DNA from: Chloroflexota bacterium
Lineage (GTDB): Bacteria; Chloroflexota; Limnocylindria; P2-11E
Direction of reading: 5' to 3'
Length of the DNA stretch: 64,000 nt
Assembly (NCBI GenBank): GCA_005889405.1
Contig: VBFY01000056.1
Span: forward strand, 46,389-110,388
A program made the position numbers and the translations under genes. This document shows, piece by piece, positions 1 through 64,000 of this stretch. Every line of letters begins with the position of its first letter. Positions within the stretch are counted from its first letter, which is position 1. The notes beneath the pieces are model-generated. The model made no database searches. It had not been told where the DNA came from and saw nothing but the letters and a program-made list of their open reading frames with translations.

Positions 1-111
1 AACCGGCCCCATCCGCTCTTCGCGAGCTTCATCGATTCAGCGCTCGCCTTCGCGCGCGCGAACGGGCGCGCCGAGGCTTCGGCACCGATGCTGCAGGAGA
101 CCCACCGATGA
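1..111 (+). CDS. 3' end of an unidentified upstream CDS (partial)
   Basis: Frame 1 is open from the window edge (...FASFIDSALAFARANGRAEASAPMLQETHR*). Its stop TGA at 109-111 overlaps the tal ATG at 108-110 (ATGA coupling). Confidence 0.3.
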   Translation, partial: NRPHPLFASFIDSALAFARANGRAEASAPMLQETHR

Positions 112-806
112 AGCTCTTCCTCGACACAGCGGAATACGACGAGATCAAGGCGGGGGTCGAGTGGGGCGTCATCGATGGCGTGACCACGAACCCGACACTG
201 ATCGCGAAGGCCGGACAGGATCACGAGACGCAGGTGAAGCGGATCTGCGGGCTCATCGGCAACGTGTCCGCCGAATGCGTAAGCGAAAAGCGTGACGACA
301 TGATCGTGGAGGGCCGCCGCATCGCCGCGTGGCACAAGAACGTCATCGTGAAGGTGCCGCTGACGCCCGACGGTCTCGGAGCCGCGAAGATCCTCGCGGG
401 CGAGGGCATCCGCATCAACGTCACGCTCTGCTTCTCGGTGAATCAGGCGCTGCTCGCGGCCGCCGTCGGCGCGTACATCGTCAGTCCGTTCGCCGGACGG
501 CTCGACGACATCAACGAGGACGGCATGCGTGTCGTGGCCGACATCGTCTCCGCATATCGGCAGCAGGAGATCAAGACGAAGGTGCTCGCGGCTTCGATCC
601 GCAACCCGATGCACGTCACGCAGGCCGCGCTCGCGGGGGCGGACATCGGCACAATGCCATTCGCGGTGCTGAAGATGCTCTTCAACCATCCGCTCACGGA
701 AGCCGGACAGAAGAAGTTCCTCGAGGACTACCGCAAGACGCAGGAGGCGAGGCCTGCGGCCCCGGCTGGCAAGCCCGTAACGCCTGAGGCCGCGACGAAG
801 CGCTGA
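108..806 (+). CDS. tal: transaldolase (short Tal/FSA family)
   Basis: 232 aa. The N-terminus MKLFLDTAEYDEIK...GVTTNPTLI and the KVPLT and SPFAGRLDD motifs are typical of short transaldolases. There is a C-terminal Pro/Ala-rich tail. Confidence 0.9.
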   Translation: MKLFLDTAEYDEIKAGVEWGVIDGVTTNPTLIAKAGQDHETQVKRICGLIGNVSAECVSEKRDDMIVEGRRIAAWHKNVIVKVPLTPDGLGAAKILAGEGIRINVTLCFSVNQALLAAAVGAYIVSPFAGRLDDINEDGMRVVADIVSAYRQQEIKTKVLAASIRNPMHVTQAALAGADIGTMPFAVLKMLFNHPLTEAGQKKFLEDYRKTQEARPAAPAGKPVTPEAATKR

Positions 807-6658: not shown

Positions 6659-9081
6659 TTGGTCACGATACTCACAATGCGGTCCGCCACGACGATCACC
6701 TTCGCGGGCTTCATACCGTCGAGCGTCGCCTGAACCCTCGGACTCGCCAGCGCCTTGCGCTGCACTTCGGCGTCGGGCAGGCCCGCGGGCATCGGGATGC
6801 GATCGCGTACCTTGCCGTCGACCTGAACCACGATCGTGACCTCGCGCGGCGCGGCGACAGCTTCGTCGTACACAGGCCAACGCTGCTGATGGATCGAACC
6901 GGCACCGCCCCGGCGGCGCCACAGCTCCTCGGTGATGTGCGGAGCGAACGGCGCCAGCAGCAGGATCAGCGTCGCGACGCCCTCGCTGCGGCTGGTGCCG
7001 CTCGCGTGCTGGAGCGTGTTGGCCAGCTCCATCATCGCCGCGACCGCGGTGTTGAAGTGATAGTCACCCAGGTCCGCGGTGACCTTCTTGATCGTCCGAT
7101 GCACCGCGCCGTCGACGTCGCCGTCGCGCGCGCTGGCAGGACCCGGCTCGGTCAGGCCCAGCTCCCATACCCGCCAGAGGAAGCGATGCACGCCTTCGAT
7201 CCCGGAGGCGTTCCAGTCCGCGCCGTCGACCCACGGGCCCATGAACATCATGAACAGCCGCAGCGTGTCGGCACCGTACCGCCTCACGTAGTCGTCGGGC
7301 GTCTGCACGTTGCCGCGCGATTTCGACATCTTGCGGCCCTTGAAGACGATCGTCCCCTGGTACCGGAAGCGGATCACCGGCTCGTCGAAGGGCAGCTCTC
7401 CGAGGTCGCGCAGCGCTTTCGTCATGAAGCGCATGTACAGCAGGTGCAGGATCGCGTGCTCGACGCCCCCGGTGTACTGCTGAACCGGCAGCCACTTCCG
7501 GCCGACTGTCTTGTTCATGAAGGCTGTGTCGATCTTCGGATCGACGTAGCGGTACATGTACCAAGACGAGTCGACGAACGTGTCCATCGTGTCGGTGTCG
7601 CGGCGCGCCGGCTTCCCGCACTTCGGGCACGTCGTGTTCACGAAGGAGGCGACGCGCGCCAGCGGTGAGCCGCCTCGTCCGGTGATCTCGACGTCGCGCG
7701 GCAGCTCGACGGGCAGCTGGTCATACGGGACCGGAACGGCGCCGTCGGTTTCACAGTGCACGATCGGGATCGGCGTACCCCAGTAGCGTTGTCGTGAGAT
7801 CAGCCAGTCGCGTAGGCGATATATGACCGACGGCTTGCCGACGCCGCGCTTTCGCGCCTCCTCGGCGACAGCCTGCTTCCCCACCTCGCTGCGCGTCCCG
7901 GTGAACGGGCCGCTGCGCACCATCACGCCCTCGCCGATGTACGGCTCGTCCAACCGCGCGTGCTCCGCGCCGTCGGGCGAGACGACCTCGCGGATCTCCA
8001 GCGCGTATTTCTTCGCGAAGGCAAAGTCCCGCTCGTCATGTCCCGGAACGGCCATGATCGCGCCGGTCCCGTAGGTCGACAGCACATAGTCGGCGACGTA
8101 GATCGGTATCCGCTCGCCGGTGAACACGTTGCGCGCGAACGCGCCGGTGTCGACCCCGGTCTTCTCGCGCTCGGCCGAGGTCCGCTCGATCTCCGCCATG
8201 TTCCGCGCGTGTTCGACGTAACGATCCACCTCCGCGCGCTTCGCGGACGTCGTGATCGTCGCGACCAGCGGGTGCTCGGGCGCCAGCACCATGAACGTCG
8301 CGCCGTAGATCGTGTCTGGTCGCGTCGTGAAGAAGCGGATCTCCTCGCCGGAGCTACCCTCCACTGGGAAAGCGATCTCCGCGCCCTCCGAGCGGCCGAT
8401 CCAGTTCGTCTGCAGGACCCGCACGCGCTCCGGCCAGTCCAGGCCCTCGAACTTCAGCAGCTCGTCCGCGTAGTTCGTGATCTTGTAGAACCACTGCGTC
8501 ATCTGGCGCTTCACGACGAGCGTGTCGCAGCGCTCGCAGTGTCCGTTGATCACCTGTTCGTTGGCCAGGACCGTCTCGTCGCGGGGGCACCAGTTCACCG
8601 CGGCCTCGCCCCGGTACGCCAGGCCCTTCTCGTACAGCTTCAGGAACATCCACTGGTTCCAGCGGTAGTACTCCGGATAGCAGGTGATGACCTCGCGGCG
8701 CCAGTCGATCGCGGTGCCCATGCGGCGGAACTGCTCGCGCATGTGGGCCATGTTCTTTTCCGTCCACACCGCGGGGTGGATCTTGCGATCGATGGCCGCG
8801 TTCTCCGCATTGATCCCGAAGGCATCGAAGCCCATGGGGAACAGCACGTTGTGACCTCGCATGCGCATGAAGCGCGCGGCGGCGTCCGGAGGCGCGAACG
8901 CGTACCAGTGGCCGACGTGGATGTCGCCCGAGGGATACGGGAACATCGTCAGGAAGTAGAAGTTCGGGCGATCGCTGTCATCCGGGGTGTCGTGAAGGCC
9001 GGAGCGCACCCACTCTTCCTGCCACTTCGCCTCGATGCTCGCCGGCTCGTATTTTTCTATCCGCTGCTTCGCCACCGCCAT
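6655..9081 (-). CDS. leuS: leucine--tRNA ligase
   Basis: The HIGH-region is present as HVGHWYAFAPPD and KMSKS is also present. The CP1 and anticodon-binding regions follow the LeuS pattern. The start is placed at ATG 9081 (MAVAKQRIEKYEP...) with SD aaaggagg. The ORF track extends 17 codons further upstream. Confidence 0.95.
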   Translation of the reverse strand: MAVAKQRIEKYEPASIEAKWQEEWVRSGLHDTPDDSDRPNFYFLTMFPYPSGDIHVGHWYAFAPPDAAARFMRMRGHNVLFPMGFDAFGINAENAAIDRKIHPAVWTEKNMAHMREQFRRMGTAIDWRREVITCYPEYYRWNQWMFLKLYEKGLAYRGEAAVNWCPRDETVLANEQVINGHCERCDTLVVKRQMTQWFYKITNYADELLKFEGLDWPERVRVLQTNWIGRSEGAEIAFPVEGSSGEEIRFFTTRPDTIYGATFMVLAPEHPLVATITTSAKRAEVDRYVEHARNMAEIERTSAEREKTGVDTGAFARNVFTGERIPIYVADYVLSTYGTGAIMAVPGHDERDFAFAKKYALEIREVVSPDGAEHARLDEPYIGEGVMVRSGPFTGTRSEVGKQAVAEEARKRGVGKPSVIYRLRDWLISRQRYWGTPIPIVHCETDGAVPVPYDQLPVELPRDVEITGRGGSPLARVASFVNTTCPKCGKPARRDTDTMDTFVDSSWYMYRYVDPKIDTAFMNKTVGRKWLPVQQYTGGVEHAILHLLYMRFMTKALRDLGELPFDEPVIRFRYQGTIVFKGRKMSKSRGNVQTPDDYVRRYGADTLRLFMMFMGPWVDGADWNASGIEGVHRFLWRVWELGLTEPGPASARDGDVDGAVHRTIKKVTADLGDYHFNTAVAAMMELANTLQHASGTSRSEGVATLILLLAPFAPHITEELWRRRGGAGSIHQQRWPVYDEAVAAPREVTIVVQVDGKVRDRIPMPAGLPDAEVQRKALASPRVQATLDGMKPAKVIVVADRIVSIVTK

Positions 9082-9208: not shown

Positions 9209-9280
9209 TGGAGCTGGCGGGATTCGAACCCGCGACCCCCACACTGCCAGTGTGATGCGCTCCCACTGCGCCACAGCCCC
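9209..9280 (-). tRNA. tRNA-Ala (anticodon GGC)
   Basis: The reverse complement folds as a cloverleaf: acceptor GGGGCUG/CAGCUCC with a G3:U70 wobble (the Ala identity element), D-arm GCGC-AGUGGGA-GCGC, anticodon arm UCACA-CUGGCAG-UGUGG (anticodon GGC), T-arm GCGGG-UUCGAAU-CCCGC and discriminator A. CCA is not fully encoded. Confidence 0.85.
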
Positions 9281-30285: not shown

Positions 30286-30645
30286 GTGGCACAGCTCACC
30301 GAGACAGGACGCAAGCACATCGCGTCGAAGAATTTCGCCTACATCGACAAGGAAGGTGGCGAGCATCTCCCGATCCACGACGAGGAGCACGTCCGCAACG
30401 CGATCGCGCGCTTCAACCAGACTGCGTTCGAGAGCGTCGACGCCAAGGAGAAGGCGCGGCGCAAGGTGCTCGCCGCGGCGAAGCGCCATGGGATCGAGGT
30501 CGCGAAGGATGATGAGATCGCGAAGCGCGCCGGAACGCTGAAGCGCGTACGGACCAAGCGCGGCATGCGCGGTGGAAAAAAGGTGGTCGCGTCGAAGCGG
30601 TCGACGTCGGCCCGGAAGAAGACCGCGGCGCGCCGCAGGAGATAG
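30286..30645 (+). CDS. hypothetical protein with a Lys/Arg-rich C-terminal tail
   Basis: 119 aa with a conserved-looking N-terminal domain (FAYIDKEGGEHLPIHDEEHVRNAIARFNQ) and a basic tail (KRGMRGGKKVVASKRSTSARKKTAARRRR). Confidence 0.5.
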   Translation: MAQLTETGRKHIASKNFAYIDKEGGEHLPIHDEEHVRNAIARFNQTAFESVDAKEKARRKVLAAAKRHGIEVAKDDEIAKRAGTLKRVRTKRGMRGGKKVVASKRSTSARKKTAARRRR

Positions 30646-33293: not shown

Positions 33294-33392
33294 GCGGCGA
33301 CGATATCGGCACGTACCGCGGGGGGGCCGTGGGCTGTTCGCGCCGCTCTGGCCGGCGAGCACCGCCTGGACCCTGCCGGGCGGCATTCTCTG

Positions 33393-33743
33393 TGGAGATG
33401 GGGGAGGGTCGAACTCCCCGTCCAAGGCCGTTGAAGTGAGCGCTTCTACGAGCGTGGTCGGCGGTTTTTTGTCTCGGGAAACCTAGCGCGCACCGACGCG
33501 CTCTCGGCTCCCCCAGGCCGGAAATCTTGAGTCCGCCTACCGGCCGATCGGCGGACCGCACCTTCGCTTAAGTCGCCCTTCCCGGCCCGCGAAGGGGAGA
33601 CCGGGAGGACGCTCACTGACTAGGCAGCGAGTGCGTAGGAATTTGTGCCAGTTATCTGGCTGCCGTTCGGATTAACGAGGAGGAACGGCGTTCCTCGGCT
33701 CGCGACGCTCACGTCGCCTGCCCTGTCGAAACCACGCATCCCC
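33393..33743 (-). ncRNA. ssrA: tmRNA (ssrA)
   Basis: On the minus strand: 5' GGGGAUGCGUGGUUUCGACAGGG (canonical tmRNA 5' end with G3:U70), 3' ...GGACGGGGAGUUCGACCCUCCCCCAUCUCCA (T-arm plus acceptor). An internal tag reading frame ...AAC GGC AGC CAG AUA ACU GGC ACA AAU UCC UAC GCA CUC GCU GCC UAG (...NSYALAA*) is present. Confidence 0.85.
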
Positions 33744-51694: not shown

Positions 51695-52596
51695 GGGCTC
51701 GCGCTCGGCGACGGTTCCAGCGACGGCGACGCCGACGGCGACGGCGCCGGAGAGGGCGTCGCGGTCTCGGTCGCCGTTGGCGAAGCGGTCACGGGACTTG
51801 GACGTGCCGACGTGGCCGGAGGCACGGAGCTCGCCGCGAAAAGGACCGCGATGGCGCCGCCGACCGTGACGAGGATCAGGAGCGCGAACACGACGAACGC
51901 GGCCGCGCGGCCCGCGGCGCTGGTGACCGTAGCCGAGCGACCCGGCGCATGCAGCAGGACGGTGATGTTGTCCTGACCGCCGCGGGCGTTCGCGAGGTCG
52001 ACGAGCGCGTTCGCCGCCGTGCGCACATCCTCACCGCTCGCGACCTTCGCGATCTCCTCTGGCGTGACGTGTCGCGTGAGACCGTCGCTGCAGAGCAGGA
52101 GACGGTCTGCCGGACGCAAAGTCTCGACGAAGATGTCGGGCTGGATGCCGCGAACGTCACCGGCGAAGCGCGTGATCGCGTGCGCCGCCTCACCGGAATG
52201 ATCTTCGGTGAGCTGCCGGCTCACGCCGTCGCGGATCAGGTAGGCACGGCTGTCGCCGAGGTTGGCGATGATCGCCTGATCGGCGCGCACCGCCGCCGCG
52301 ACGATCGTGGTCGCCGCATCGCGATGGCCCGAGGAGATCGCCGCCCGCAGCACCGCGGCATTGGCATCGCGCATCGCCTCCGCGAGAGCATCGCTCGTCG
52401 CGCGATCCGGCGGTGCACCGAAGAAGCGGAGCCCAAGCTCGACCATCGCGGCGTCGGCGGCGATCTCACCACCGCTCGATCCGCCGACGCCGTCCGCGAC
52501 GGCGAGCAGCGTGACGCCACGCTCTTCGCGGACGAGGTAGCGATCTTCGTTCCCGTCACGGACGCGACCTGTATCCGTCTTCACACCGGTCGCCAT
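51691..52596 (-). CDS. PP2C-family Ser/Thr phosphatase with a C-terminal TM helix and a Pro/Ser/Thr-rich tail
   Basis: Intact PPM motifs (AVADGVGG, NLGDSRAYL, CSDGLT, GQDNITV). Start MATGVKTDTGRVR is 5 nt after the kinase stop. Confidence 0.85.
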   Translation of the reverse strand: MATGVKTDTGRVRDGNEDRYLVREERGVTLLAVADGVGGSSGGEIAADAAMVELGLRFFGAPPDRATSDALAEAMRDANAAVLRAAISSGHRDAATTIVAAAVRADQAIIANLGDSRAYLIRDGVSRQLTEDHSGEAAHAITRFAGDVRGIQPDIFVETLRPADRLLLCSDGLTRHVTPEEIAKVASGEDVRTAANALVDLANARGGQDNITVLLHAPGRSATVTSAAGRAAAFVVFALLILVTVGGAIAVLFAASSVPPATSARPSPVTASPTATETATPSPAPSPSASPSLEPSPSASP

Positions 52597-52601
52597 GCGC
52601 G

Positions 52602-53885
52602 TCAGTCCTGTGACTTCCCGCTGCAGTCCTTGCCGCCGACGAGGAAGAGGCGCGCGGTCGCGCCCTGCTGCACGGCCGTCCCCGGCTGTGGCTCCTGCCG
52701 CGCGACCGTGCAGGCCTGACCCTGCGCCGCCGGGTCCACCTGCCACGGCACCGGAGACCGGTAGCCGGCCGCGATCAGAAGCCGCGCTGCCTCATCGACA
52801 CTCTTCCCGACGACGTTCGGTGCGACGTGCGCGGCGGCGGACGCCGAGGGGCCGCCGGTGGGCCGCACATCGCCGACGCGACCCTGGAAGGATGCGAAGA
52901 TCGCGAGCGTCGCGACGAGCACGGCCACGATCGCAAGGAGCGCCATCGTCGTGTCGACATGGAACTCGCGGCGACCGCCGGCGCGAAGCGGTCGCGTCAC
53001 CGGCGGGAGGACGCCTGTCGCGTCGTCACGCTGTGAGGCCGCGAGCAGATCGCGTGCGAACGCTCCCGCGCTCGCGTACCGACCCTGCGGATCTCGCGCG
53101 AGCGCCTTCGCAACGACGCGGTCGATCTCCTCGCTGATGCCGACGCGCGCCGAGCGCAGCGACGGCGGCCGACCATCCAGGCGGACGCGCAGTAGATCCT
53201 CGGTCTCCATCTCGGCGTTCGGTGGTCGACCGGCGATGAGCTCGTACGCGACGAGGCCGAGGCTGTAGACATCACTGCGTTCGGTCGGAGCGCGGCCCTC
53301 GATACGCTCTGGTGCGATGTACCTGGCCGTGCCGATGAGTTCGTGCTCGCGCGGCCCGCGCGCCGCGCGCGCGATGCCGAAGTCGGCGAGCTTTGCGGTG
53401 CCCTGCTGGTCGACGATGACGTTCGCGGGCTTCACGTCGCAGTGGATGACGCCCGCTTCATGTGCCGCGTCGAGCGCGGCCGCGATCTGCGCCACCAGAC
53501 GCGCGGCCTCGTGCGGGCGGAGCGGTCCGCGGTCCGCAACGACATCACGCAGCGTTCGCCCGCGCACGAGCTCCATCACCATGAACGCGTCGACGCCGTC
53601 GCGGCCCTCGTCGAACACCGTGACGACGTTCGGATGTAGGACGGAGGCGGCGCGCCGTGCCTCGTCGGCAAAGCGCTCACGGAACGCTTCGTCGGCGGTC
53701 GGCCCCAGGATCTTGATGGCGACATCGCGGTCGAGCCGCTCGTCGCGAGCCTGCCACACCTCGCCCGCGCCACCTTCGTCGATGCGCTTTGTCAGACGGT
53801 ACCGACCCGCGAGGAGCCGGCCCTCCTTCGTGTCCTCCCCCTGCGCGGCACGTTCTTCCGATGGCATGTCTTTCATCGGTCGCAA
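52602..53885 (-). CDS. Ser/Thr protein kinase with a TM helix and an extracellular PASTA domain (PknB-like)
   Basis: Hanks motifs (VAIK, HCDVKPANV, DFG, APE), TM LLAIVAVLVATLAIF and a C-terminal PASTA (VVGKSVDEAARLLIAAGY...). The start is 3 nt after the opcA stop. Confidence 0.9.
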   Translation of the reverse strand: MRPMKDMPSEERAAQGEDTKEGRLLAGRYRLTKRIDEGGAGEVWQARDERLDRDVAIKILGPTADEAFRERFADEARRAASVLHPNVVTVFDEGRDGVDAFMVMELVRGRTLRDVVADRGPLRPHEAARLVAQIAAALDAAHEAGVIHCDVKPANVIVDQQGTAKLADFGIARAARGPREHELIGTARYIAPERIEGRAPTERSDVYSLGLVAYELIAGRPPNAEMETEDLLRVRLDGRPPSLRSARVGISEEIDRVVAKALARDPQGRYASAGAFARDLLAASQRDDATGVLPPVTRPLRAGGRREFHVDTTMALLAIVAVLVATLAIFASFQGRVGDVRPTGGPSASAAAHVAPNVVGKSVDEAARLLIAAGYRSPVPWQVDPAAQGQACTVARQEPQPGTAVQQGATARLFLVGGKDCSGKSQD

Positions 53886-53888
53886 GGC

Positions 53889-55022
53889 TCAGGCCAGCGC
53901 CATCAGAGCAGCGAGCGCGGCTTCGTAAACGTGGTCGTTCCCGGCGATCGCGAGCTCCTCGACGAGCAGCTCGCGGATGCCGAGCGCCGGAAGCGGTACG
54001 ACGCGCTCGGCGCGCACGACGCCGCCGACGACCGCCGTGGCCGTCGCGTGACGCTGGTCCGGCGCCCGCTTGATCACGAACTCCGCGCTCTCGCGGCCGA
54101 GCGCGGCCTGGATGCGGACGCCCGACACATCGCCCGTATCGAGGCCACGCTCGAAGCGTGGCCGCAGGCGGACCATGACCGCGGCGTTGTCCGAACGCGC
54201 CATCTTGAAGAGCACGCCGCCAGCCTCTGATGGGGCGAGGGCCTCCACCGGGCGCCAGCCAAGACGCGACGCCATCCACCCGAGCAGGAGCAGCGCCTGC
54301 GACGGATGGATATCGCGGCCGTCCATGTCGACCGCGAAGCCGGCTCGTATCCCGGTGATCCCATCCAGGAACGGACGCCACGTCGGCACGTCGAAGAACT
54401 GCGCGATGAGCTCGCGCCAGTGCGTGAGCCGTGCCCAATTCAGATCCGTGATGCCGACGCGGAGGCGCGCAAGGCGTGCGACCTCCGGCAGCGTGAGGTC
54501 GGCGCGCGCGAAGTCAGCCGAATCGACGATGAGACGGTCCGCCAGCGTCACCAGATCGTCGACGTGCCGCGCGTCGCTCGGCGGCGTCCCGGTCCACCAC
54601 AGGAAGACCGGCAGGTCCGGAACGAGCAGCGGTATCACGACGCTGGCGACGCGCTCGTCAAAATCGCCGCGCACGCGCGCGAGGATCTGCTCGTACAGCA
54701 CCGGCTGCGCACCATCGGACTGCGGAACATGACAGTGGAGCTGCAACGACGCGAGCACGCCCTCTCGGCTGCGGTCGCCGAGCACGATGATCGCGCGCGA
54801 AGGATGCCGCAGCGCGAGATCTGCGACCGCCCGCGCGGCTCGCCGCGCATGTATTTCGCGCTCGGCATAGACGACGAGATTGAGCACCGATGCTCGCGCG
54901 AGCGCCTGGCCGCGCTCTTTCGCGTGCGCGACTGCGGCGCGGCGGAGCCGACCCAGCTCGCGTTCGAGCGCGTCGATGCTCCCGGCGCGCGCGCCCCAGA
55001 ACGCTTCGTCCATCACGGTCAT
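53889..55022 (-). CDS. opcA: glucose-6-phosphate dehydrogenase assembly protein OpcA
   Basis: The ATG overlaps the zwf stop (ATGA). Start MTVMDEAFWGARAGSIDALERELGRLRR. The 168 codons upstream in the track ORF are zwf-frame overlap. Confidence 0.8.
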   Translation of the reverse strand: MTVMDEAFWGARAGSIDALERELGRLRRAAVAHAKERGQALARASVLNLVVYAEREIHARRAARAVADLALRHPSRAIIVLGDRSREGVLASLQLHCHVPQSDGAQPVLYEQILARVRGDFDERVASVVIPLLVPDLPVFLWWTGTPPSDARHVDDLVTLADRLIVDSADFARADLTLPEVARLARLRVGITDLNWARLTHWRELIAQFFDVPTWRPFLDGITGIRAGFAVDMDGRDIHPSQALLLLGWMASRLGWRPVEALAPSEAGGVLFKMARSDNAAVMVRLRPRFERGLDTGDVSGVRIQAALGRESAEFVIKRAPDQRHATATAVVGGVVRAERVVPLPALGIRELLVEELAIAGNDHVYEAALAALMALA

Positions 55023-56542
55023 GGTCGTCGCCAGGTGCGGCTGTCGCGTGCGATGAGCGCGTCGGCCTGCTCGGGCCCCCACGTGCCGGCAGCGTAAGTC
55101 GCAAGCTCCTGCCGTCCCGCGTGCCACCCGGCGAGGATCGGGTCGACGAAAGCCCATTGCTGCTCGACCTCGTCGCGGCGCGTGAACAGGGTCGCGTCGC
55201 CGCGAAGTGCATCGAGGATCAGCGTCTCGTACGAGTCGGGCGCGTCGACCATGAAGGATTCCCCATACCCGAAATCCATATTCACCGAGCGGATCCGCAG
55301 GCCCTGGACGGGCACCTTCGCGCCGAAGGTGAGGGAGATGCCTTCGTCGGGCTGGATCCGTATCACCAGCTCGTTGGCGTCGAGTCCCTCCGACGCCTCG
55401 CGGGTGAAGATGCGGTGCGGCGCGACACGGAAGCGGATCGCGATCTCGGTGGAGCGCTTCGGCAACCGCTTTCCCGTGCGGATGTAGAACGGCGTGCCCT
55501 CCCAGCGCCAGTTGTCGATGAAGCACTTGAGGGCCACGTATGTCTCGGTCTGTGAGTTCGGTGCGACGCCGGGCTCGTCGCGATAGCCCACGACCCGTTC
55601 GCCGCCGATGAATCCCTGACCGTACTGGCCGCGCACGGTGAGCTCGCCGACCTCTTCCGGGGCGATCTGCCGGAGCGCGCGCAGCACCTTGACCTTCTCA
55701 TCGCGCACCGAGCGGTCGTCGAACGCGGACGGAGGCTCCATGCCGACGAGCGCGAGCAGCTGCAGGAGGTGGTTCTGCACGATGTCGCGCATCGCGCCGG
55801 CGCTGTCGTAGTACCCAGCGCGCTCTTCGATCCCGATCGATTCGGCGGCCGTGATCTGAACGTGATCGACGAACTGACGTGTCCAGATCGGCTCGAAGAT
55901 GCTGTTCGCGAAGCGCAGCACGAGGATGTTCTGGACCGTCTCTTTTCCGAGGTAGTGGTCGATCCGAAAGACCTCGTCCTCGCGGAAGACCTCCTGGACG
56001 ACGCTGGTGAGGCGCATCGCGCTGTCGAGGTCGTGTCCGTACGGCTTCTCGACCACGACGCGCGACCAACCGCTCGCCCCGCGCAGGCCATGCGCGCCGA
56101 TCGCGCGGATGATCGGCTCGTACGCAGCCGGCGGTGTCGCGAGATAGAACAGCCGATTGCCATTCGCGCCGATCTCGCCGTCAACGCGTGCGAGGACCCG
56201 ACCAAGCTCATTGAACCCGCTTTCGTCCGGCGTCGGGACGTAGCGGATGGAGCGCGCGAACGTCGTCCAGACCTCCTCGTTGATCGGCCTGGTGCGACTG
56301 AACTCCGCGACGGCGTCGTGAAGCTCGGCGCGGAACACGTCCTCGGTCATGGCGCGGCGAGCGGAACCGATCACACCGAAGCTCGCCGGCAGGAGGTGTT
56401 GCAGCGCGAGGTTGTACAGCGCCGGCACCAGCTTGCGCGACGTGAGATCGCCCGACGCGCCGAAGATGACAAGCGATGCCGGCTCGGGCGTGCGCGCAAG
56501 TCGCAAGCCTTCGCGAAGTGGATTCGCGAGCGTTACGGTCAC
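55019..56542 (-). CDS. zwf: glucose-6-phosphate 1-dehydrogenase
   Basis: VIFGASGDLTSRKL NADP site, RIDHYLGKE and EKPYGHD motifs. Confidence 0.9.
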   Translation of the reverse strand: MTVTLANPLREGLRLARTPEPASLVIFGASGDLTSRKLVPALYNLALQHLLPASFGVIGSARRAMTEDVFRAELHDAVAEFSRTRPINEEVWTTFARSIRYVPTPDESGFNELGRVLARVDGEIGANGNRLFYLATPPAAYEPIIRAIGAHGLRGASGWSRVVVEKPYGHDLDSAMRLTSVVQEVFREDEVFRIDHYLGKETVQNILVLRFANSIFEPIWTRQFVDHVQITAAESIGIEERAGYYDSAGAMRDIVQNHLLQLLALVGMEPPSAFDDRSVRDEKVKVLRALRQIAPEEVGELTVRGQYGQGFIGGERVVGYRDEPGVAPNSQTETYVALKCFIDNWRWEGTPFYIRTGKRLPKRSTEIAIRFRVAPHRIFTREASEGLDANELVIRIQPDEGISLTFGAKVPVQGLRIRSVNMDFGYGESFMVDAPDSYETLILDALRGDATLFTRRDEVEQQWAFVDPILAGWHAGRQELATYAAGTWGPEQADALIARDSRTWRRP

Positions 56543-56733: not shown

Positions 56734-57630
<897 letters not shown>

Positions 57631-57692
57631 GCCGTCACCCCCGTCGTGCGACCGAGGATATTCGGTCCGCGCCCTCTTCCTTGCGGTAGGGT

Positions 57693-59558
57693 GTGGTCGT
57701 GGCGACCGTGAGCGAGGCGGTTACGCGTCTCGATGTGTACCGTTCGCTGGCGCGTCAGCTGCGCGCCGACAGCATCCGATGCTCGACCGCTGCCGGATCC
57801 GGCCACCCGACGTCGTCGCTGTCCGCGGCCGATCTCATGGCCGTACTGCTCGCGGGTCATCTTCGCTATGACTTCGAGCGGCCGGAGTCGCTCGCGAATG
57901 ATCACCTCATTTTCTCCAAGGGGCACGCGTCGCCGCTCGTGTATGCGATGTTCCGCGCAGCCGGGGCGATCGACGACACCGAGCTCATGACGTTCCGAAA
58001 GCTCGGCTCGCGCCTGGAAGGTCATCCCACCCCGATCCTGCCCTGGGTCGACGTCGCAACCGGTTCGCTTGGGCAAGGTCTGCCGATCGGCGTCGGGGTC
58101 GCGCTCGCCGGCAAACGGCTGCTGCGGGCGCCCTTTCACGTCTGGGTCGTCGTCGGCGACAGCGAATCGGCTGAGGGCTCGATCTGGGAAGCGTTCGATC
58201 TTGCCGGCCATGAGGGACTTGAGAACGTCACGGCGATCCTCGACATCAATCGCCTCGGTCAACGCGGGCCGACCGAACTGGAGTGGGACACCGCGGCGTA
58301 TGCGTCACGCGTGACGGCGTTCGGCCTCGACCCGATCGTGATCGACGGCCACGATCTCGCGCAGATCGATGGCGCGTACGAACGCGCGCGCTCGTCCTCG
58401 CGACCGACCGCGATCATCGCGAAGACCGTGAAGGGCAAGGGCGTCTCGTTCCTCGAGGACAAGCCGGGCTGGCACGGCAAGGCCCTCGACGCGAAGCAGG
58501 CGAAGCTGGCGCTCGCGGAACTCGGGGCCGAGCCCTCGCGTGCATTCGAGGTGCCGAGTCCGCCAGCGTGGCGGCCCGCGCCACTCCCGCAGTCCAAGGC
58601 GCCGGACCTGCGCCGCTACACCGAGCCTGTCGCGACGCGCAAGGCGTACGGCGAGGCGATCGCGGCGCTCGGTGCCGCGCGCGCGGATGTCGTGGCGCTC
58701 GACGCTGAGGTGAGCAACTCGACCCACGCCGAGGATTTCAAGAAGACCGCCCCCGATCGCTTCTTCGAGATGTACATCGCCGAGCAGCGGATGGTCGCGG
58801 TGGCCGTCGGGATGCAGGTCGTCGGCTTCGTGCCGTTCGCATCGACGTTCGCTGCATTTCTCGCGCGCGCGTACGACTTCATCCGCATGGCCGCGATCTC
58901 GCGTGCGGACATCCGTCTTTCCGGTTCGCACGCCGGCGTCTCGATCGGCGAAGACGGTCCGTCGCAGATGGCGCTCGAGGATCTCGCGATGATGCGCGCC
59001 GTACATGGCAGCACGGTGCTGTATCCCTGCGACGCGAACCAGACCGCGAAGCTCGTTGCGGCGATGGCCGACCTGCGTGGGATCTCGTACATCCGCACCA
59101 CGCGCGCGAACACCCCGATCCTCTACCGACCCGAGGACGAGTTCCCGATCGGCGGCAGCCGTATCGTGCGCGGCGGTGGCCCGGACGACCGCGTCACCGT
59201 GGTCGCGGCAGGCATCACGGTGCACGAGGGTGTGAAGGCCGCCGACGAGCTCGCGAAATCCGGCGTGAAGATCCGGCTGATCGATGCGTATTCGGTGAAA
59301 CCGCTGGACGCCCGCGGCATCGCGAAGGCCGTGCGAGAGACCGGCGGGCGTCTCGTCGTCGCGGAAGACCATTGGCCCGAGGGCGGCCTCGGCGACGCGG
59401 TCGTCTCCGCCCTGGTCGGCCTCGGCATGACCGAAATCGCTCTGCGGCACCTCGCGGTGCACGACATGCCCGGGTCGGGCAAGCCAGCCGAGCTCGTGGA
59501 GGCGGCCGGGATCGCGGGCCGCGACATCGCAACAGCGGTCCGCGCGCTGCTGGCATGA
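57693..59558 (+). CDS. tkt: transketolase
   Basis: TPP-binding GSGHP...ADLMAVLL, GDSESAEGSIWEA and transketolase Pyr and C-terminal domains. 621 aa. Confidence 0.85.
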   Translation: MVVATVSEAVTRLDVYRSLARQLRADSIRCSTAAGSGHPTSSLSAADLMAVLLAGHLRYDFERPESLANDHLIFSKGHASPLVYAMFRAAGAIDDTELMTFRKLGSRLEGHPTPILPWVDVATGSLGQGLPIGVGVALAGKRLLRAPFHVWVVVGDSESAEGSIWEAFDLAGHEGLENVTAILDINRLGQRGPTELEWDTAAYASRVTAFGLDPIVIDGHDLAQIDGAYERARSSSRPTAIIAKTVKGKGVSFLEDKPGWHGKALDAKQAKLALAELGAEPSRAFEVPSPPAWRPAPLPQSKAPDLRRYTEPVATRKAYGEAIAALGAARADVVALDAEVSNSTHAEDFKKTAPDRFFEMYIAEQRMVAVAVGMQVVGFVPFASTFAAFLARAYDFIRMAAISRADIRLSGSHAGVSIGEDGPSQMALEDLAMMRAVHGSTVLYPCDANQTAKLVAAMADLRGISYIRTTRANTPILYRPEDEFPIGGSRIVRGGGPDDRVTVVAAGITVHEGVKAADELAKSGVKIRLIDAYSVKPLDARGIAKAVRETGGRLVVAEDHWPEGGLGDAVVSALVGLGMTEIALRHLAVHDMPGSGKPAELVEAAGIAGRDIATAVRALLA

Positions 59559-60580
59559 GCCCCGGACGCTGGCTGCCGCTCACTGCGCTTTGCCTGGTCG
59601 CGATCGTCGCGATCTGCCTCGTCGATCTCCTCACCGGACCCGACATCGGGTTCTCGCTCTTCTATCTCATTCCGGTCGTCGTGACGGCTTGGTATGCCGG
59701 CCGCGTAGCGGGTGCGACCGTCGCGGTCGCTGGCGCGCTCGCGTGGCTCTTCGCCGACACGTTCAACCGCGGCATCGTGTCGCTCGGCCCCTCGATCTGG
59801 AACGGCTTTACGCGTCTCGTGATCTTCATCGCCATCGCCCTCCTGCTCGATCGCCAGCGGACCAGCTCCGCGCGTCTCGCGGAGGTCGATCACCAGCGCG
59901 AGGACTTCCTGCGGGTCCTTGATTACGAGCTGCCGCGGCCGGTCGAAGCGATCGCCGCGCTCGCGAAGAAGCTCGATCGCGACACGCCGGCGCACTCCGA
60001 GGCCCACAACACGATCCAGGAGCTGCAACGGCGCGCGCAGGAGCTGCAGTTCCTCGCCCGCGATTTCGTCTCGCTCGGGCGACTCCAGAGCGAACGACTG
60101 CTGCTCACCCGGACGCATTCCGATCTGAACGAGATCGTACGCGAGGCGGTGCGGGCGATCGCGGACAAACAGCGCGTGATCATCACGCTGGGCGCGGAGG
60201 CGCCGATCGTCGATGCCGACGTCGATCGCCTGCGGCAAGCGATCGAGAGCGTCATCCGCAGCGCGCTCCAGCATTCGACTGAGTACGTGAACGTGGCGGT
60301 CCGAATCGACGCGCGCTACGCGTGGGTCGACGTCAGCGACCGATCTCGCGTGCCACTCCGCGTGGACGATCGCGCGCTGTTCGACGATCCGGAGCGCGCC
60401 GACGACCCGCGCGCTGTCGCGGTGGCCGATCGTTTCCTGGGCCTCGAGCTCGCCCGCCTTCTTATGGAGGCCAACGGCGGATCGCTCGATATCGAGAGCC
60501 CCTCGACGCTCGGCTCACTCGTGCGTCTGCGGCTACCGCGCGCCACACGCCCGCCGCTCATGCGCTCGGCAATGGCCTAG
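59555..60580 (+). CDS. DUF4118-anchored histidine-kinase-like protein with degenerate H-box and ATP-lid (pseudokinase)
   Basis: The ATG overlaps the tkt stop. N-terminal DUF4118-like 3-TM region. The H-box reads FLRVLDYELPRPVEAI (Tyr where the phosphoacceptor His is expected). The HATPase region has no G1 DxGxG and only a weak N-box; the G2-like FLGLEL is present. Confidence 0.55.
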   Translation: MSPGRWLPLTALCLVAIVAICLVDLLTGPDIGFSLFYLIPVVVTAWYAGRVAGATVAVAGALAWLFADTFNRGIVSLGPSIWNGFTRLVIFIAIALLLDRQRTSSARLAEVDHQREDFLRVLDYELPRPVEAIAALAKKLDRDTPAHSEAHNTIQELQRRAQELQFLARDFVSLGRLQSERLLLTRTHSDLNEIVREAVRAIADKQRVIITLGAEAPIVDADVDRLRQAIESVIRSALQHSTEYVNVAVRIDARYAWVDVSDRSRVPLRVDDRALFDDPERADDPRAVAVADRFLGLELARLLMEANGGSLDIESPSTLGSLVRLRLPRATRPPLMRSAMA

Positions 60581-60600
60581 CCGCGCGCATACTCGCCGCC

Positions 60601-62097
60601 GTGCTGCGCGAGCCGCTCGCGATCCCGCTGCGCGAGGCGCGCGCGCCGCTCGTGCTTGCGCTCGACATCGGCACGTCGGGTCTGCGCGCCTTTCTCTTCG
60701 ACTCGCGCGGGCGGCCCATCGCCCGTTGCATCGCGCACGCGGATCGACCGGTGCGGACCTCCGTTGATGGCGAGGTCACCGTGGATGCGGACGAGCGCGT
60801 GCGCGCAGCGTTGGGAACGATCGACACCGTCCTCGCGAGCGCCGGGCGCCGCGCGGGTGAGATCGCGGCTGTGGCGACCTCGACGTTCTGGCACAGCCTT
60901 GTGGGCGTGGACGCGCGCGGCCGGGCGACCACGCGCGTGCTCACGTGGGCGGACACGCGTGCGCGCGGCGCGGCGGCGGACCTGCGGCGCGAGCTCGACC
61001 CTGTCGCCACTCATGTGCGCACCGGCTGTGTCCTCCACGCGTCATACCTGCCCGCGAAGCTACGGTGGCTCCGCGAGCACGAGGCGGACGCGTACGCGCG
61101 CACGGCGTGGTGGATGTCGCTCGGCGAGTACCTGTATCTGCGCATCCTCGGCGCGCGGCGCGCGGGACACGGGATGGCGTCGGCCACCGGCCTGTACGAC
61201 CAGCGCCTGCGCCGCTACGATCGCCCGCTCCTCATGCACCTCCTCGTGGGCGAGGAGACGTTCTCTCCGATCGACGACGCGCCTCTCGCCGGGATGCTGC
61301 GGGCGTTCGCGCGCCGCTGGCCGGCCCTCGCGAACGCGAAATGGATCCCCGCGATCGGGGACGGCGCGTGCTCCAATGTCGGCGCCGGCGCGATCGGTCG
61401 TGACACCGCATCGCTGTTCCTTGGGACCTCCGGCGCGATGCGGGTGGTGTACGCGACCGACGATCCGCCGATCGTTCCGGGCGGCTGGACGTACCGGCTC
61501 GATGCCTCGCGGGTCGTCGCTGGAGGCGCGCTCTCGAACGGCGGCAACGTGCTGAGCTGGCTCGCGCGCACATTCCCAGGCGTCGATGTCGCCGCCGCGC
61601 TTCGCCGCGGCTCGGTGGACGGAACGCTCGTCGCCCTTCCACTCCTGGCCGGCGATCGAAGCCCGACGTGGAACGACGCTGCGCGTGCCGCGGTCGCCGG
61701 TGTCGGGCTCGGCACCACCGCAGACGATGTCGCACGTGCGATGGTCGAGGGCGTCGCCCATCGCGTCGCGCGCCTGTGGGAGGTCACGAGCCGCGCCATG
61801 CCCGGGATCGACCGCGTCATCGCCACCGGCGGCACGCTCTTGGCGCTGCCCTGGCTCATACAACTCTTCGCCGACGCGATCGACCGCCCGATCCTGACGA
61901 GTGGCGCGGGCGAAGGATCCGCGCGCGGTGCGGCGATCGTCGCACTCGAGCGGATCGGCGCGCTCGCAGACATCGCCGCGGTGCGCTCGCCGTTCGGGCG
62001 CACCTTTCGACCTCGTCCAGCCGCGACCGCTCGCCTGCGCGCCGGGATGGAGCGCCAGCGCCACCTGGAAGAAGCCCTCGCTCCGCTGATGTCATGA
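60601..62097 (+). CDS. FGGY-family carbohydrate kinase (gluconokinase-like)
   Basis: N-terminal LALDIGTSGLRA, FGGY_N/C architecture and C-terminal ATGGTL motif. GTG start proposed. Function is inferred from the PPP neighbourhood. Confidence 0.65.
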   Translation: MLREPLAIPLREARAPLVLALDIGTSGLRAFLFDSRGRPIARCIAHADRPVRTSVDGEVTVDADERVRAALGTIDTVLASAGRRAGEIAAVATSTFWHSLVGVDARGRATTRVLTWADTRARGAAADLRRELDPVATHVRTGCVLHASYLPAKLRWLREHEADAYARTAWWMSLGEYLYLRILGARRAGHGMASATGLYDQRLRRYDRPLLMHLLVGEETFSPIDDAPLAGMLRAFARRWPALANAKWIPAIGDGACSNVGAGAIGRDTASLFLGTSGAMRVVYATDDPPIVPGGWTYRLDASRVVAGGALSNGGNVLSWLARTFPGVDVAAALRRGSVDGTLVALPLLAGDRSPTWNDAARAAVAGVGLGTTADDVARAMVEGVAHRVARLWEVTSRAMPGIDRVIATGGTLLALPWLIQLFADAIDRPILTSGAGEGSARGAAIVALERIGALADIAAVRSPFGRTFRPRPAATARLRAGMERQRHLEEALAPLMS

Positions 62098-62131
62098 TTG
62101 AGCGGGCCGCCGCTCGGAAGGGGAGAACGCT

Positions 62132-62692
62132 GTGGAGATCTTGATCCCGCTGATCGTCATCGCACTCATCGTCGTGTTCGTCATCGGTCTGTACAACCGT
62201 CTGATCACGCTGCGTCAGCGCGTGCGCGAGGCGTGGTCAGACATCGACGTCCAGCTGAAGCGGCGCCACGACCTCATCCCGAACCTCGTCGCAACGGTCC
62301 AGGGCTACGCCGCGCACGAGAAGGGCGTCTTCGAGAACGTGACGAAAGCGCGCGCGGCCGCGGTCGCGGGACAGAACGGAACACCGCAGGAGCGCGCTGT
62401 CGCCGAGAACCAGCTCACCGCCGCGCTGCGAACGGTGTTCGCGGTCGCGGAGAACTATCCGCAGCTCCAGGCCGTCCAGGAGTTCAAGGATCTGTCCGAG
62501 AACCTTGCCGCCACCGAGGACAAGATCGCGTTCGCGCGGCGCTTCTACAACGGGAACGTTCGCGACTACAACACCGCGCTGCAGACCGTCCCGACCAACA
62601 TCCTCGCGGGGATGTTCGGCTTCACTCCGGAGCAGTACTTCGAGCTGGCCGACGCGACCGAGCGCGAAGTGCCGAAGGTGTCGTTCGGCTAG
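62132..62692 (+). CDS. lemA: LemA family protein
   Basis: N-terminal TM and the LemA consensus (…RRFYNGNVRDYNTALQTVPTNILAGMFGF). Confidence 0.85.
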   Translation: MEILIPLIVIALIVVFVIGLYNRLITLRQRVREAWSDIDVQLKRRHDLIPNLVATVQGYAAHEKGVFENVTKARAAAVAGQNGTPQERAVAENQLTAALRTVFAVAENYPQLQAVQEFKDLSENLAATEDKIAFARRFYNGNVRDYNTALQTVPTNILAGMFGFTPEQYFELADATEREVPKVSFG

Positions 62693-62697
62693 CCCGC

Positions 62698-63615
62698 GTG
62701 GCCGCTCCGCCGACCCGGCTCAACATCTACGACGCCGTCGCAGCGAATCGCTGGCGCACCGTCGCGCTCATCACGGTGTTCACCGGCATCCTCGCGGCGC
62801 TCGGGTACGTCGTCGGCGAGGTGTTCACGCCCGGCGGCGGCATCGCGATGGTGCCACTCGCGCTCGGCTTCTCCGGCGTTTCCGCGACGGCCTCGTACTT
62901 TGCCGGGGACAAGCTCGTGCTCGCACAGAGCCAGGCAAGCGAGCTCGCGCCGGGTGCCGAGCCGCAGCTGCGGAACATCGTTGAGACCCTTTCGATCGGG
63001 CTCGGGATCACTCCGCCGCGTATCTATCTGATCGATGACACCGCCCCCAACGCCTTCGCCACGGGCCGTGACCCAAAACACGCGTCGATCGTCGCCACGC
63101 GCGGTCTGCTCGACAAGCTGGATCGCACCGAGCTCGAGGGCGTGATCGCCCACGAGCTGTCGCACGTCGTCAACCGAGACATCCGCGTCATGCTCCTCGT
63201 GACGGTCCTTGTCGGGACGGTCGCCCTGCTCTCGGACTGGATGTTCCGATCGTTCGCTTGGGGTGGCGGTGGGCGCCGGGGACGCGACCGTGGTGGCGGA
63301 GGGGTCATCCTGATCATCGCGCTCGTGCTCGCGATCCTCACTCCGGTCGTCGCGGCGCTGATCCAGTTCGCGGTTTCGCGGCAGCGCGAATATCTCGCCG
63401 ACGCGTCCGGCGCGCTCCTCACCCGCTATCCGACCGGACTCGCGAACGCGCTGCGCAAGATCGCGGCGGACACGGAGGCCCTCGAGGTCGCGAACAAAGC
63501 GACGGCATCTCTGTACATCGCCAACCCGCTCAAGGACGCGCCGCGTGCCCTTGACGGGCTGTTCGACACGCACCCGCCGATCGCCGAGCGCATTCGTCGC
63601 CTCGAGGCGATGTGA
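62698..63615 (+). CDS. htpX: M48 zinc metalloprotease HtpX-like
   Basis: HELSH(V) zinc motif, 4 TM helices and pairing with lemA. GTG start 6 nt after the lemA stop. Confidence 0.8.
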   Translation: MAAPPTRLNIYDAVAANRWRTVALITVFTGILAALGYVVGEVFTPGGGIAMVPLALGFSGVSATASYFAGDKLVLAQSQASELAPGAEPQLRNIVETLSIGLGITPPRIYLIDDTAPNAFATGRDPKHASIVATRGLLDKLDRTELEGVIAHELSHVVNRDIRVMLLVTVLVGTVALLSDWMFRSFAWGGGGRRGRDRGGGGVILIIALVLAILTPVVAALIQFAVSRQREYLADASGALLTRYPTGLANALRKIAADTEALEVANKATASLYIANPLKDAPRALDGLFDTHPPIAERIRRLEAM

Positions 63616-64000
63616 TGGCGGACACACCGCCTACCGATCGTCCCGCGGAGAAAGCGCCTGAACCTGAGAAGGCGCCTCTCCCTGAGAAGGCACTTCCGCC
63701 TGAGAAGGCGCCTGAGCCCGCATCGTCACACGCCGCTGTCAGCCCGCGCGCGGGCGACGCGGCGCTGCCTCTCGGATACGCGGGGATCATCGCGGTCCTG
63801 CTCGTCGTGGCGGCCATTGGTGGGGGTCTCGCGATCGGGACCATCGCGCGACCGAGCCCGACGCCGCGCCCCACTCCGGCGCCGACCGCTACGGTCCCGA
63901 CGCGAACGCCGGTGCCCACGACCGATCCGCAGGTGTTCTTCCAACAGCTGTCCGCCGGCTGCGCCACGGAGCAGGGCCTCTGGGTCGTCGCGAACGGAGG
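63614..64000 (+). CDS. membrane-anchored Pro-rich protein (partial; runs off the window end)
   Basis: The ATG overlaps the htpX stop. PEKAP repeats, a TM helix (IIAVLLVVAAIGGGLAIGTIA) and a Pro/Thr-rich region. Confidence 0.4.

Follow-up and report, generated by a model that had tools for sequence, protein, structure and literature searches.

What does a protein do that has kept a sensor histidine kinase's fold but lost the residues that define its active site? This question is raised by a gene on contig VBFY01000056.1 (GenBank assembly GCA_005889405.1) of a Chloroflexota bacterium of the class Limnocylindria, of which we analysed a stretch of 64,000 nucleotides (64 kb; contig positions 46,389 to 110,388, forward strand), hereafter called the window and used for all coordinates. 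A preliminary description, made from these letters alone, had read positions 59555-60580 as a histidine-kinase-like open reading frame (ORF) with a DUF4118 membrane anchor and a DHp-like helix, and had proposed a pseudo-histidine kinase that might serve as a scaffold or regulator. What that description stated about the sequence was confirmed throughout. Pfam, AlphaFold2 and Foldseek agree with the domain reading, and the term pseudokinase is justified, as the catalytic determinants are absent, the fold is intact and the gene is under purifying selection like its housekeeping neighbours. In the reading that we favour and consider likely, the protein is a functional, membrane-bound pseudoenzyme derived from a histidine kinase that acts by binding a partner, probably a two-component protein encoded elsewhere. 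The elements of the gene are as follows.

59555..60580, + strand: complete coding sequence of the pseudo-histidine kinase, 341 amino acids (aa) plus TAG stop (ORF read, Pfam, AlphaFold2, Foldseek, substitution rates)
59555..59854, + strand: DUF4118 membrane module, residues 1-100, four transmembrane (TM) helices (Pfam, AlphaFold2)
59906..59953, + strand: degenerate H-box FLRVLDYELPRPVEAI, residues 118-133 (aligned to the H-boxes of HK853, RetS and DivL)
59924..59926, + strand: Tyr124 codon TAC at the phospho-acceptor position (codon read)
59936..59938, + strand: Arg128 codon at H+4, a position held by Thr/Asn in HisKA kinases (YELPRP versus HELRTP)
60260..60262, + strand: Ser236 codon AGC, in place of the Mg2+/ATP-binding N-box Asn (alignment to HK853, DivL and RetS)
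60332..60355, + strand: G1-box remnant VSDRSRVP, residues 260-267, Asp kept and both glycines lost (alignment to HK853)
60428..60448, + strand: G2-box remnant DRFLGLE, residues 292-298, one Gly kept (alignment to GTGLGLA of HK853)

At the level of domain profiles, the Pfam scores of the pseudokinase are marginal. DUF4118 (residues 11-98) scored 28.1 bits against a cut-off of 28.4, HisKA (residues 114-179) was clearly sub-threshold with 16.7 against 26.9 bits, and HATPase_c (residues 222-330) lay just above its cut-off (31.5 against 26.4 bits); NCBIfam gave only partial matches of at most 49 bits to many histidine-kinase equivalogs with cut-offs of 290-1100 bits. The AlphaFold2 model, computed from a 78-sequence alignment, reached a mean pLDDT of 90.9 and consists of helices at residues 6-27, 34-48, 50-72 and 74-125, after which come a helical hairpin and a CA domain of alpha/beta type, with the fourth TM helix (TM4, residues 74-125) running continuously into DHp helix 1. 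Foldseek matched this model to DHp-CA structures of histidine kinases (ZraS, RetS, CpxA, KdpD, DivL and HK853; E~1e-11) and, together with the HATPase_c match, this establishes the DHp plus Bergerat-fold CA architecture of HisKA-type kinases. Among solved structures, the best sequence matches were DivL (4Q20, E 1.5e-10), RetS and HK853, with DivL ranking first for the full-length query and just behind RetS for the cytoplasmic part. The DUF4118 signature (D24, Y37, P40, W82, N83) is conserved at 90% or more, canonical relatives included. We rejected an upstream TTG start at 59372, which would overlap the preceding transketolase gene (tkt) by 186 nucleotides (nt), because the homologues all start at the equivalent of 59555 (MGRxLSLTAL); a Pfam match to Thiamine_BP on the CA beta-sheet, tempting beside the gene of a ThDP enzyme, stayed below its cut-off (15.6 against 24.9 bits, E 0.016) and was treated as chance.

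In order to place the catalytic motifs, the protein was aligned pairwise to HK853, RetS and DivL using HMMER, and conservation was read from a word-indexed protein search that returned 176 homologues; family counts refer to the window protein and the best 120 of these 176. Tyr124 aligns with the H-box His of HK853 (SHELRTP) and RetS and with the Tyr of DivL (SYELRTP), which upholds the earlier statement that Tyr replaces the phosphoacceptor. The DHp has no other conserved histidine: the family consensus reads Arg for H113 and Gln for H188, and the stretch with H147 and H151 is variable; these four and H240, in the N-box region of the CA domain, were rejected as alternative acceptors. Four residues further on, Arg128 is near-invariant across the family (one change). 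The Thr/Asn of the E/DxxT/N motif after the His is needed for phosphatase activity (as cited in PMC12963549), and in its place the pseudokinase reads Y-E-L-P-R-P. The N-box, described earlier as weak, reads VIRSALQHS versus LLNNGVKYS, and Ser occupies the Asn position in all 120 homologues considered, His-bearing ones included. As had been reported, the G1 box is missing: D262-R-S-R-V-P stands against the canonical D-N-G-I-G-I-P, and the remnant SDRS[RH][VL]P recurs in all 119 pattern-matched homologues, again including the His-bearing members. The G2 box reads R-F-L-G-L instead of G-T-G-L-G-L (FLGL in 115 of 116 matched homologues). Thus the acceptor His, the N-box Asn, the G1 DxGxG and the G2 GxGxG of an active HisKA kinase are all absent from the pseudokinase; what remains is Asp262 of G1, the Phe of the F-box and a single Gly of G2. 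Since no Mg-ATP site is left, the protein would not be expected to autophosphorylate, and phosphatase action is unlikely because the Thr/Asn of the E/DxxT/N motif is gone; judged from these motifs, it is very probably dead as a catalyst.

The gene is nevertheless almost certainly functional. The best 120 homologues are 79-98% identical and about 339 aa long, and the named ones among them come from metagenome-assembled genomes (MAGs) of Chloroflexota or Candidatus Limnocylindria. Thirteen species-level genomes have an orthologue, and independent soil metagenomes yielded at least 24 contigs with exactly this protein. No orthologue has a broken reading frame, and 18 sequences of 79-89% identity share 132 invariant columns. 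The ratio of nonsynonymous to synonymous substitution rates (dN/dS, Nei-Gojobori, over 11 loci) was 0.156 for the pseudokinase, compared to 0.109 for tkt, 0.142 for the FGGY-family sugar kinase gene downstream and 0.104 for the gene of an HtpX-like M48 protease. By domain, dN/dS was 0.12 for CA, 0.18 for DHp and 0.22 for the TM part, and the lid (residues 257-300), rich in invariant Arg and Asp, was the most constrained segment with 0.10. Gene decay was rejected because the constraint is distributed the other way round from what decay would leave. Two marks of a histidine-kinase-derived pseudokinase, a preserved fold without the catalytic residues and purifying selection, are therefore present.

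The emphasis of the preliminary description on Tyr124 has to be shifted, however. Across the 121 orthologues (the window protein and the 120 homologues), position 124 is occupied by Tyr (52), Phe (37) or His (32), and the corresponding codons TAC, TTC and CAC form a chain of single-base steps; already a 94%-identical genome (L008) has His where the window has Tyr. On a neighbour-joining (NJ) tree, this site changed at least 12 times, compared to a median of 2 changes per site, and substitutions went either way (Y>F 4, Y>H 3, H>Y 2, F>Y 2, H>F 1), with His as the parsimony root state of the ingroup. The flanking residues 119-123 and 125-127 are invariant in all 121 sequences. A single base change could likewise give Asn, Asp, Arg, Leu, Pro, Gln, Ser or Cys, and none of them was seen at residue 124 in the 121 orthologues. 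From the codon table we infer that position 124 is kept for an aromatic side chain and is indifferent to phosphorylation. The N-box Ser and the loss of G1, on the other hand, are universal, and it is therefore the apparent loss of ATP binding, not the Tyr, that defines the family. The His has indeed been replaced in the window protein, as first described, whereas its replacement by Tyr is not the defining lesion: Tyr124 is one allele of a position that swings between His, Tyr and Phe.

Nor is the pseudokinase a one-off: it belongs to a larger clade of dead kinases with a DUF4118 anchor. An exhaustive search of representatives at 50% identity gave 19 clusters at E<=1e-30, and the nearest relatives, P0121 (66% identical) and P0122 (45%), carry Arg at the acceptor site (FLRVLERELP) together with the same dead N-box; the Arg codon of the 66% sister, CGC, is one transition from CAC. 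We then aligned 97 small DUF4118 proteins, consisting of 92 library representatives, the query and four close homologues as markers. Neither the N-box Asn nor G1 is present in 31 of the 97, among them 26 library representatives; a midpoint-rooted NJ tree groups these 31 in one clade apart from the 65 canonical small DUF4118 kinases, which carry VAHELR, NALKYSP, DxGxG and GLGL. Common descent of the dead clade is also favoured by its common H-box signature L-L-E/D-x-E-[LF]-P-R-P. In most of its members the acceptor site is Arg, and in many the ATP lid is wholly deleted; the full-length lid is kept by the present subfamily and P0122. A second word-indexed search, using a profile of the dead clade, mostly recovered the same orthologues and added few members, such as P0298, P0303 and the Limnocylindria-named P0307, with little taxonomic information. 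Named members are labelled as "hypothetical protein", "ATP-binding protein" or "sensor histidine kinase". Several Limnocylindria MAGs pair an orthologue with at least one Arg-type paralogue (L021/L011, L022/L017, L023/L013, P0123/L012), and each such MAG is thus predicted to hold at least two DUF4118 pseudo-kinases. The following loci encode Arg-type paralogues.

L021:4749-5789: Arg-type paralogue
L022:~8001-8957: Arg-type paralogue
L023:~8001-8954: Arg-type paralogue
L024:1498-2499: Arg-type paralogue

These paralogues are 35% identical, read FLRV/IIEREL with the Arg codon CGA or CGG, and lie in gene contexts unrelated to that of the orthologue.

Gene contexts within the wider clade bear on the question of a partner. 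In L039 (5612-7002) and L040 (589-1979), a gene for a 130-aa stand-alone receiver overlaps the start of a member that has retained the His and is dead in its CA domain, and the two may represent a natural pair comparable to DivK and DivL. In L045, a receiver gene and a gene for a 648-aa canonical kinase lie just upstream of a dead-clade member. Because receiver genes stand beside these relatives (L039, L040, L045), a two-component partner is favoured for the pseudokinase as well. Other neighbours of dead-clade members are PBP_like_2 genes (L039 and L044) and genes for MEDS, Usp and Na+/H+ exchanger proteins (L041 and L042). The receiver pairs of L039 and L040 are followed by DUF2277 and PBP_like_2 genes.

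The best-conserved parts of the pseudokinase are the DHp helices and the remodelled, Arg/Asp-rich lid, and its membrane sensor module is intact. We propose that the four-helix DUF4118 module would sense a cue at the membrane and pass it along the continuous TM4-alpha1 helix, so that the DHp and CA surface offered to a binding partner would change its conformation. The likeliest partner would be a two-component protein whose gene lies elsewhere: a stand-alone receiver, as in the case of DivL and DivK~P, or a true kinase, as for RetS and GacS. The docking surface would include the aromatic ring of residue 124. Being probably co-expressed with transketolase, an FGGY sugar kinase, LemA and HtpX, the pseudokinase may tie this signalling to sugar-phosphate metabolism or to membrane quality control. 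For the docking of a two-component partner taken by itself, we see roughly even chances.

This proposal follows what is established for a small class of proteins. Characterised pseudokinases derived from histidine kinases are few, comprising DivL, RetS-like proteins, PsmA and an evolved ChrS variant, and each has shown that a dead transmitter can find a new use as sensor or scaffold. With DivL, RetS and PsmA as analogues, the scaffold or regulator role suggested in the preliminary description is plausible. DivL of Caulobacter crescentus has no kinase or phosphatase activity, binds ATP poorly and senses DivK~P at its regulator-docking face, and its variants Y550H and Y550F have not lost DivK~P binding (PMC4211667); the toggling between His, Tyr and Phe therefore matches a docking role without phosphorylation. 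Tyr residues of the two proteins align exactly (SYELRTP versus DYELPRP in 4Q20) and both keep the DHp-CA fold. However, local identity is only about 23% and the pseudokinase is no DivL orthologue: DivL is an alphaproteobacterial protein of 769 aa with multiple PAS domains, whereas the pseudokinase, from the Chloroflexota class Limnocylindria, has no PAS domain, begins with the four-helix DUF4118 membrane sensor and is encoded in a metabolic operon. In addition, the N-box Asn, the Thr at H+4 and most of G1 are still present in DivL, whereas in the pseudokinase Asn, Thr and the glycines of G1 are all gone.

RetS of Pseudomonas aeruginosa blocks GacS through a DHp heterodimer, as also stated in the title of PDB entry 7N0E. 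It is one of the two best sequence matches among solved structures and a top structural match (6DK7, 6DK8, 7N0E), has itself a degenerate G1 (D-S-G-H-P) and serves as a model for contact through the DHp instead of normal phosphotransfer. Unlike the pseudokinase, RetS shows both the acceptor His and the N-box Asn when aligned, and it is a large hybrid with a periplasmic sensor and two receiver domains; a GacS-like partner was not found near the pseudokinase gene, the 64-kb window being without a second histidine kinase.

The third precedent is PsmA, a histidine pseudokinase of the Streptomyces polarisome, in which the acceptor position is E, D, Q, V or Y within a conserved H-box (PMC12963549). 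It resembles the present family in its variable acceptor, the loss of the ATP-binding and E/DxxT/N motifs, its confinement to one lineage and its conserved gene context (PMC12963549). PsmA differs, however, in architecture and phylum, as it is a cytoplasmic hybrid with a receiver domain that binds DivIVA; a sequence relationship between the two was not detected, and only in the pseudokinase family is the variable position aromatic throughout.

Several observations weigh against the favoured reading. About a quarter of the orthologues carry His124 and may, judged by this residue, be phosphorylated in trans by another kinase, and the surviving Asp262 and part of G2 make weak binding of a nucleotide or another ligand possible. 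The tree behind the single clade is a crude NJ tree, and shared erosion may have drawn its branches together. The gene order around the pseudokinase, described below, is shared only among close genomes (neighbour genes 75-96% identical) and the 66% sister. Finally, phmmer with three receiver-domain queries (E<=1, all ORFs of at least 60 aa) found no receiver domain in the 64-kb window, in line with the earlier remark that no response regulator is adjacent, and the window holds no second histidine kinase; the orthologous loci contain no receiver domain within 8-10 kb on either side. Orphan kinases exist, and a missing nearby response regulator is therefore supportive only.

The alternative that survives best places the protein outside the two-component network. 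It would be dedicated to the enzymes of pentose-phosphate and gluconate metabolism whose genes surround it (transketolase, FGGY kinase and glucose-6-phosphate dehydrogenase (G6PDH) with OpcA), regulating them or tethering them to the membrane, and its Arg-rich lid might sense a sugar phosphate or NADPH. The neighbouring genes are as follows.

57693..59558, + strand: transketolase gene tkt (NCBIfam NF004559, 922.8 bits, above cut-off)
60601..62097, + strand: FGGY-family sugar kinase gene, gluconokinase/xylulokinase-like, 20 nt downstream of the pseudokinase gene (Pfam FGGY_N, FGGY_C)
62132..62692, + strand: LemA-family gene (Pfam LemA)
62698..63615, + strand: HtpX-like M48 protease gene (Pfam Peptidase_M48; HtpX NCBIfam 313.6 bits)
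55019..56542, - strand: zwf, divergent from tkt (gene calls and Pfam)
56734..57630, - strand: short-form gnd, 6-phosphogluconate dehydrogenase (NF007161 and TIGR00872, both above cut-offs)

The complete order is PMT - PP2C - PASTA Ser/Thr kinase - opcA - zwf - gnd, divergent from tkt - pseudokinase - FGGY kinase - LemA - HtpX-like M48 protease - 392-aa protein, followed by a CoA-transferase gene and an enoyl-CoA hydratase gene. For the FGGY kinase, the best NCBIfam matches were gntK_FGGY and XylB, both far below their cut-offs. The pseudokinase ATG at 59555 overlaps the tkt stop codon (TGA 59556-59558; ATGA in ctggcATGAgc), as had been noticed before; in most orthologues a 2-nt spacer precedes a GTG start, and the distance to tkt varies from -4 to +2 nt in the ingroup and is about 33 nt in the 66% sister. 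Co-transcription with tkt is likely. A scan for promoters across 57400-64000 gave no promoter-like site, and a scan for terminators gave none on the + strand and one on the opposite strand, no more than in shuffled sequences, both scans being uninformative for this phylum; an Rfam scan of the window found no riboswitch.

This tight spacing to tkt argues for the metabolic alternative, as does the order zwf-gnd, tkt-pseudokinase-FGGY kinase, which is found in thirteen species-level genomes and the 66% sister (in L017 without the FGGY gene). More broadly, gene order is kept in every orthologous locus that is long enough, including those of an 80% identical His-type orthologue and the 66% Arg-type sister. 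The absence of a receiver or further histidine kinase from the window and the strong constraint on the lid (omega 0.10, invariant Arg and Asp) point in the same direction, and the identity of the operon partners (tkt, FGGY sugar kinase, LemA and HtpX) hints at a tie to metabolism or the membrane. However, this synteny spans a short evolutionary distance, over which the whole 20-kb neighbourhood is collinear, and the 45% relative lies elsewhere, between a helicase gene and a rhomboid gene, with all other dead-clade members also in unrelated contexts. Synteny is therefore weak evidence for a pentose-phosphate link, and we down-weighted it as proof of function. In addition, L017 kept the pseudokinase and lost the FGGY gene, and we found no precedent for a protein of the histidine-kinase fold that regulates such enzymes. 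A functional link to the pentose phosphate pathway can thus be hypothesised, while a dedicated role in it appears unlikely to us, and the regulator or tether outlined above is similarly improbable. In its fullest form, a membrane sensor of the histidine-kinase fold would have been recruited to central carbon metabolism, translationally coupled to transketolase, and its lid would hold a sugar phosphate or redox cofactor, or else serve as the dock for transketolase, the FGGY kinase or OpcA-G6PDH, thereby tuning pentose-phosphate flux without phosphotransfer; we regard this version as unlikely.

Some features of this neighbourhood deserve mention in their own right. In L017 (3144-4761; DATEDV01), the pseudokinase gene is directly followed by LemA. 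Short-form gnd matches in two overlapping pieces in L008 (5176-6068), suggesting a frameshift, and was called as a 117-aa fragment in L003 (6294-6647); these breaks could be assembly errors or real disruptions. The zwf-gnd cluster continues with opcA, the PASTA-domain Ser/Thr kinase and PP2C (window ~51700-55000, - strand; L001:1982-4992), so that a eukaryote-like kinase/phosphatase pair lies within a pentose-phosphate cluster, conserved down to the 66% sister locus. The 392-aa protein (window 63615-64000, partial; L001:14061-15239) has no Pfam or NCBIfam match; its gene, the last of the same-strand cluster, overlaps the stop of the HtpX-like gene with its start and is conserved in the orthologous loci.

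Still less probable is a working phospho-transfer protein, in which the His orthologues would be phosphorylated in trans or through a non-canonical ATP site and the Tyr and Phe forms would be recent loss-of-function alleles. The ancestral state of the ingroup and the 32 of 121 orthologues with His fit this idea, and so does the retention of Asp262, the F-box Phe and one G2 Gly. However, lineages with Tyr or Phe show no relaxed selection (omega 0.137 for both Tyr-Tyr and Phe-Phe pairs, compared to 0.159 for His-His pairs), the changes are bidirectional and include Y>H, and the next outgroups carry Arg. Moreover, N-box Asn, G1 glycines and the Thr at H+4 are missing from the His-bearing members as well, and the exact Tyr protein recurs on the independent contigs counted above, at least 24 in number. 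We consider this explanation quite unlikely.

The Tyr could also be a regulatory phosphorylation site, a role that was reportedly first proposed for the Tyr of DivL. Here, the modifying enzyme might be the Ser/Thr(/Tyr) kinase of the divergent operon, whose gene is 5 kb away; the PASTA kinase and PP2C are conserved there, and Tyr is indeed the commonest residue at the position (52/121). Against this stand the 37 orthologues (31%) with an unphosphorylatable Phe under equal constraint and the finding that DivL itself needs no Tyr phosphorylation (PMC4211667), which leaves this idea very improbable. A decaying pseudogene or annotation artefact, to which the degenerate motifs and marginal Pfam scores might point, is refuted by the intact frame in all orthologues, the 132 invariant columns in 18 sequences, a dN/dS of 0.16 like that of housekeeping neighbours and the confident AlphaFold2 model.

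Returning to the favoured pseudoenzyme reading, its closest canonical counterparts are the small DUF4118-HisKA-HATPase_c kinases, which likewise combine four TM helices, DHp and CA in about 340 aa, share the DUF4118 signature and are 25-35% identical; unlike them, the pseudokinase lacks VAHELR, NALKYSP, DxGxG and GLGL. To KdpD, the C-terminal 250 residues of the model match with 43 bits against a cut-off of 1123, but the N-terminal KdpD and Usp domains are missing and there are no kdp genes nearby. Histidine-kinase-derived pseudokinases are an established small class, and PsmA already is a precedent for a variable acceptor position; new are the family itself, its minimal membrane-embedded architecture, the toggling restricted to aromatic residues and the placement in a transketolase operon. 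In the library searched, no paper joins DUF4118 with a pseudokinase, and those that mention DUF4118 do not treat the present family.

Our findings describe a sizeable, unannotated clade of minimal (~300-340 aa), membrane-embedded proteins in an uncultured class of soil Chloroflexota, whose labels "sensor histidine kinase" and "ATP-binding protein" mislead counts of two-component systems. The change between His, Tyr and Phe inside frozen surroundings amounts to a natural mutagenesis experiment. A specialist would not be surprised unless the metabolic link is real, although the database annotation is corrected in either case. If the operon link to tkt and the sugar kinase were functional, it would connect the histidine-kinase fold to central metabolism, and the metabolic alternative, if true, would provide the founding example of a pseudoenzyme of this fold in central carbon metabolism, in uncultured soil Limnocylindria.

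A few further elements were recorded in passing. Genes with an "...LPI(N/H)D..HVRNA..." motif directly precede the Arg-type paralogue in L021 (3917-4789) and L024 (495-1493), and in L045 (912-1751) a gene with the LPI(N/H)D motif and a weak DUF6582 match is fused to a guanylate cyclase domain. A small homologue with this motif lies in the window itself (30286-30645, + strand), 29 kb from the pseudokinase gene. The Rfam scan yielded, at the gathering threshold, only a tmRNA (33390-33743, - strand, 137.9 bits) and one tRNA (9209-9280, - strand). At the start of the window (108-806, + strand), 57 kb from tkt-zwf-gnd, a gene resembling an Fsa/TalC-type transaldolase (MKLFLDTAEYDEIK...) was recognised by eye.

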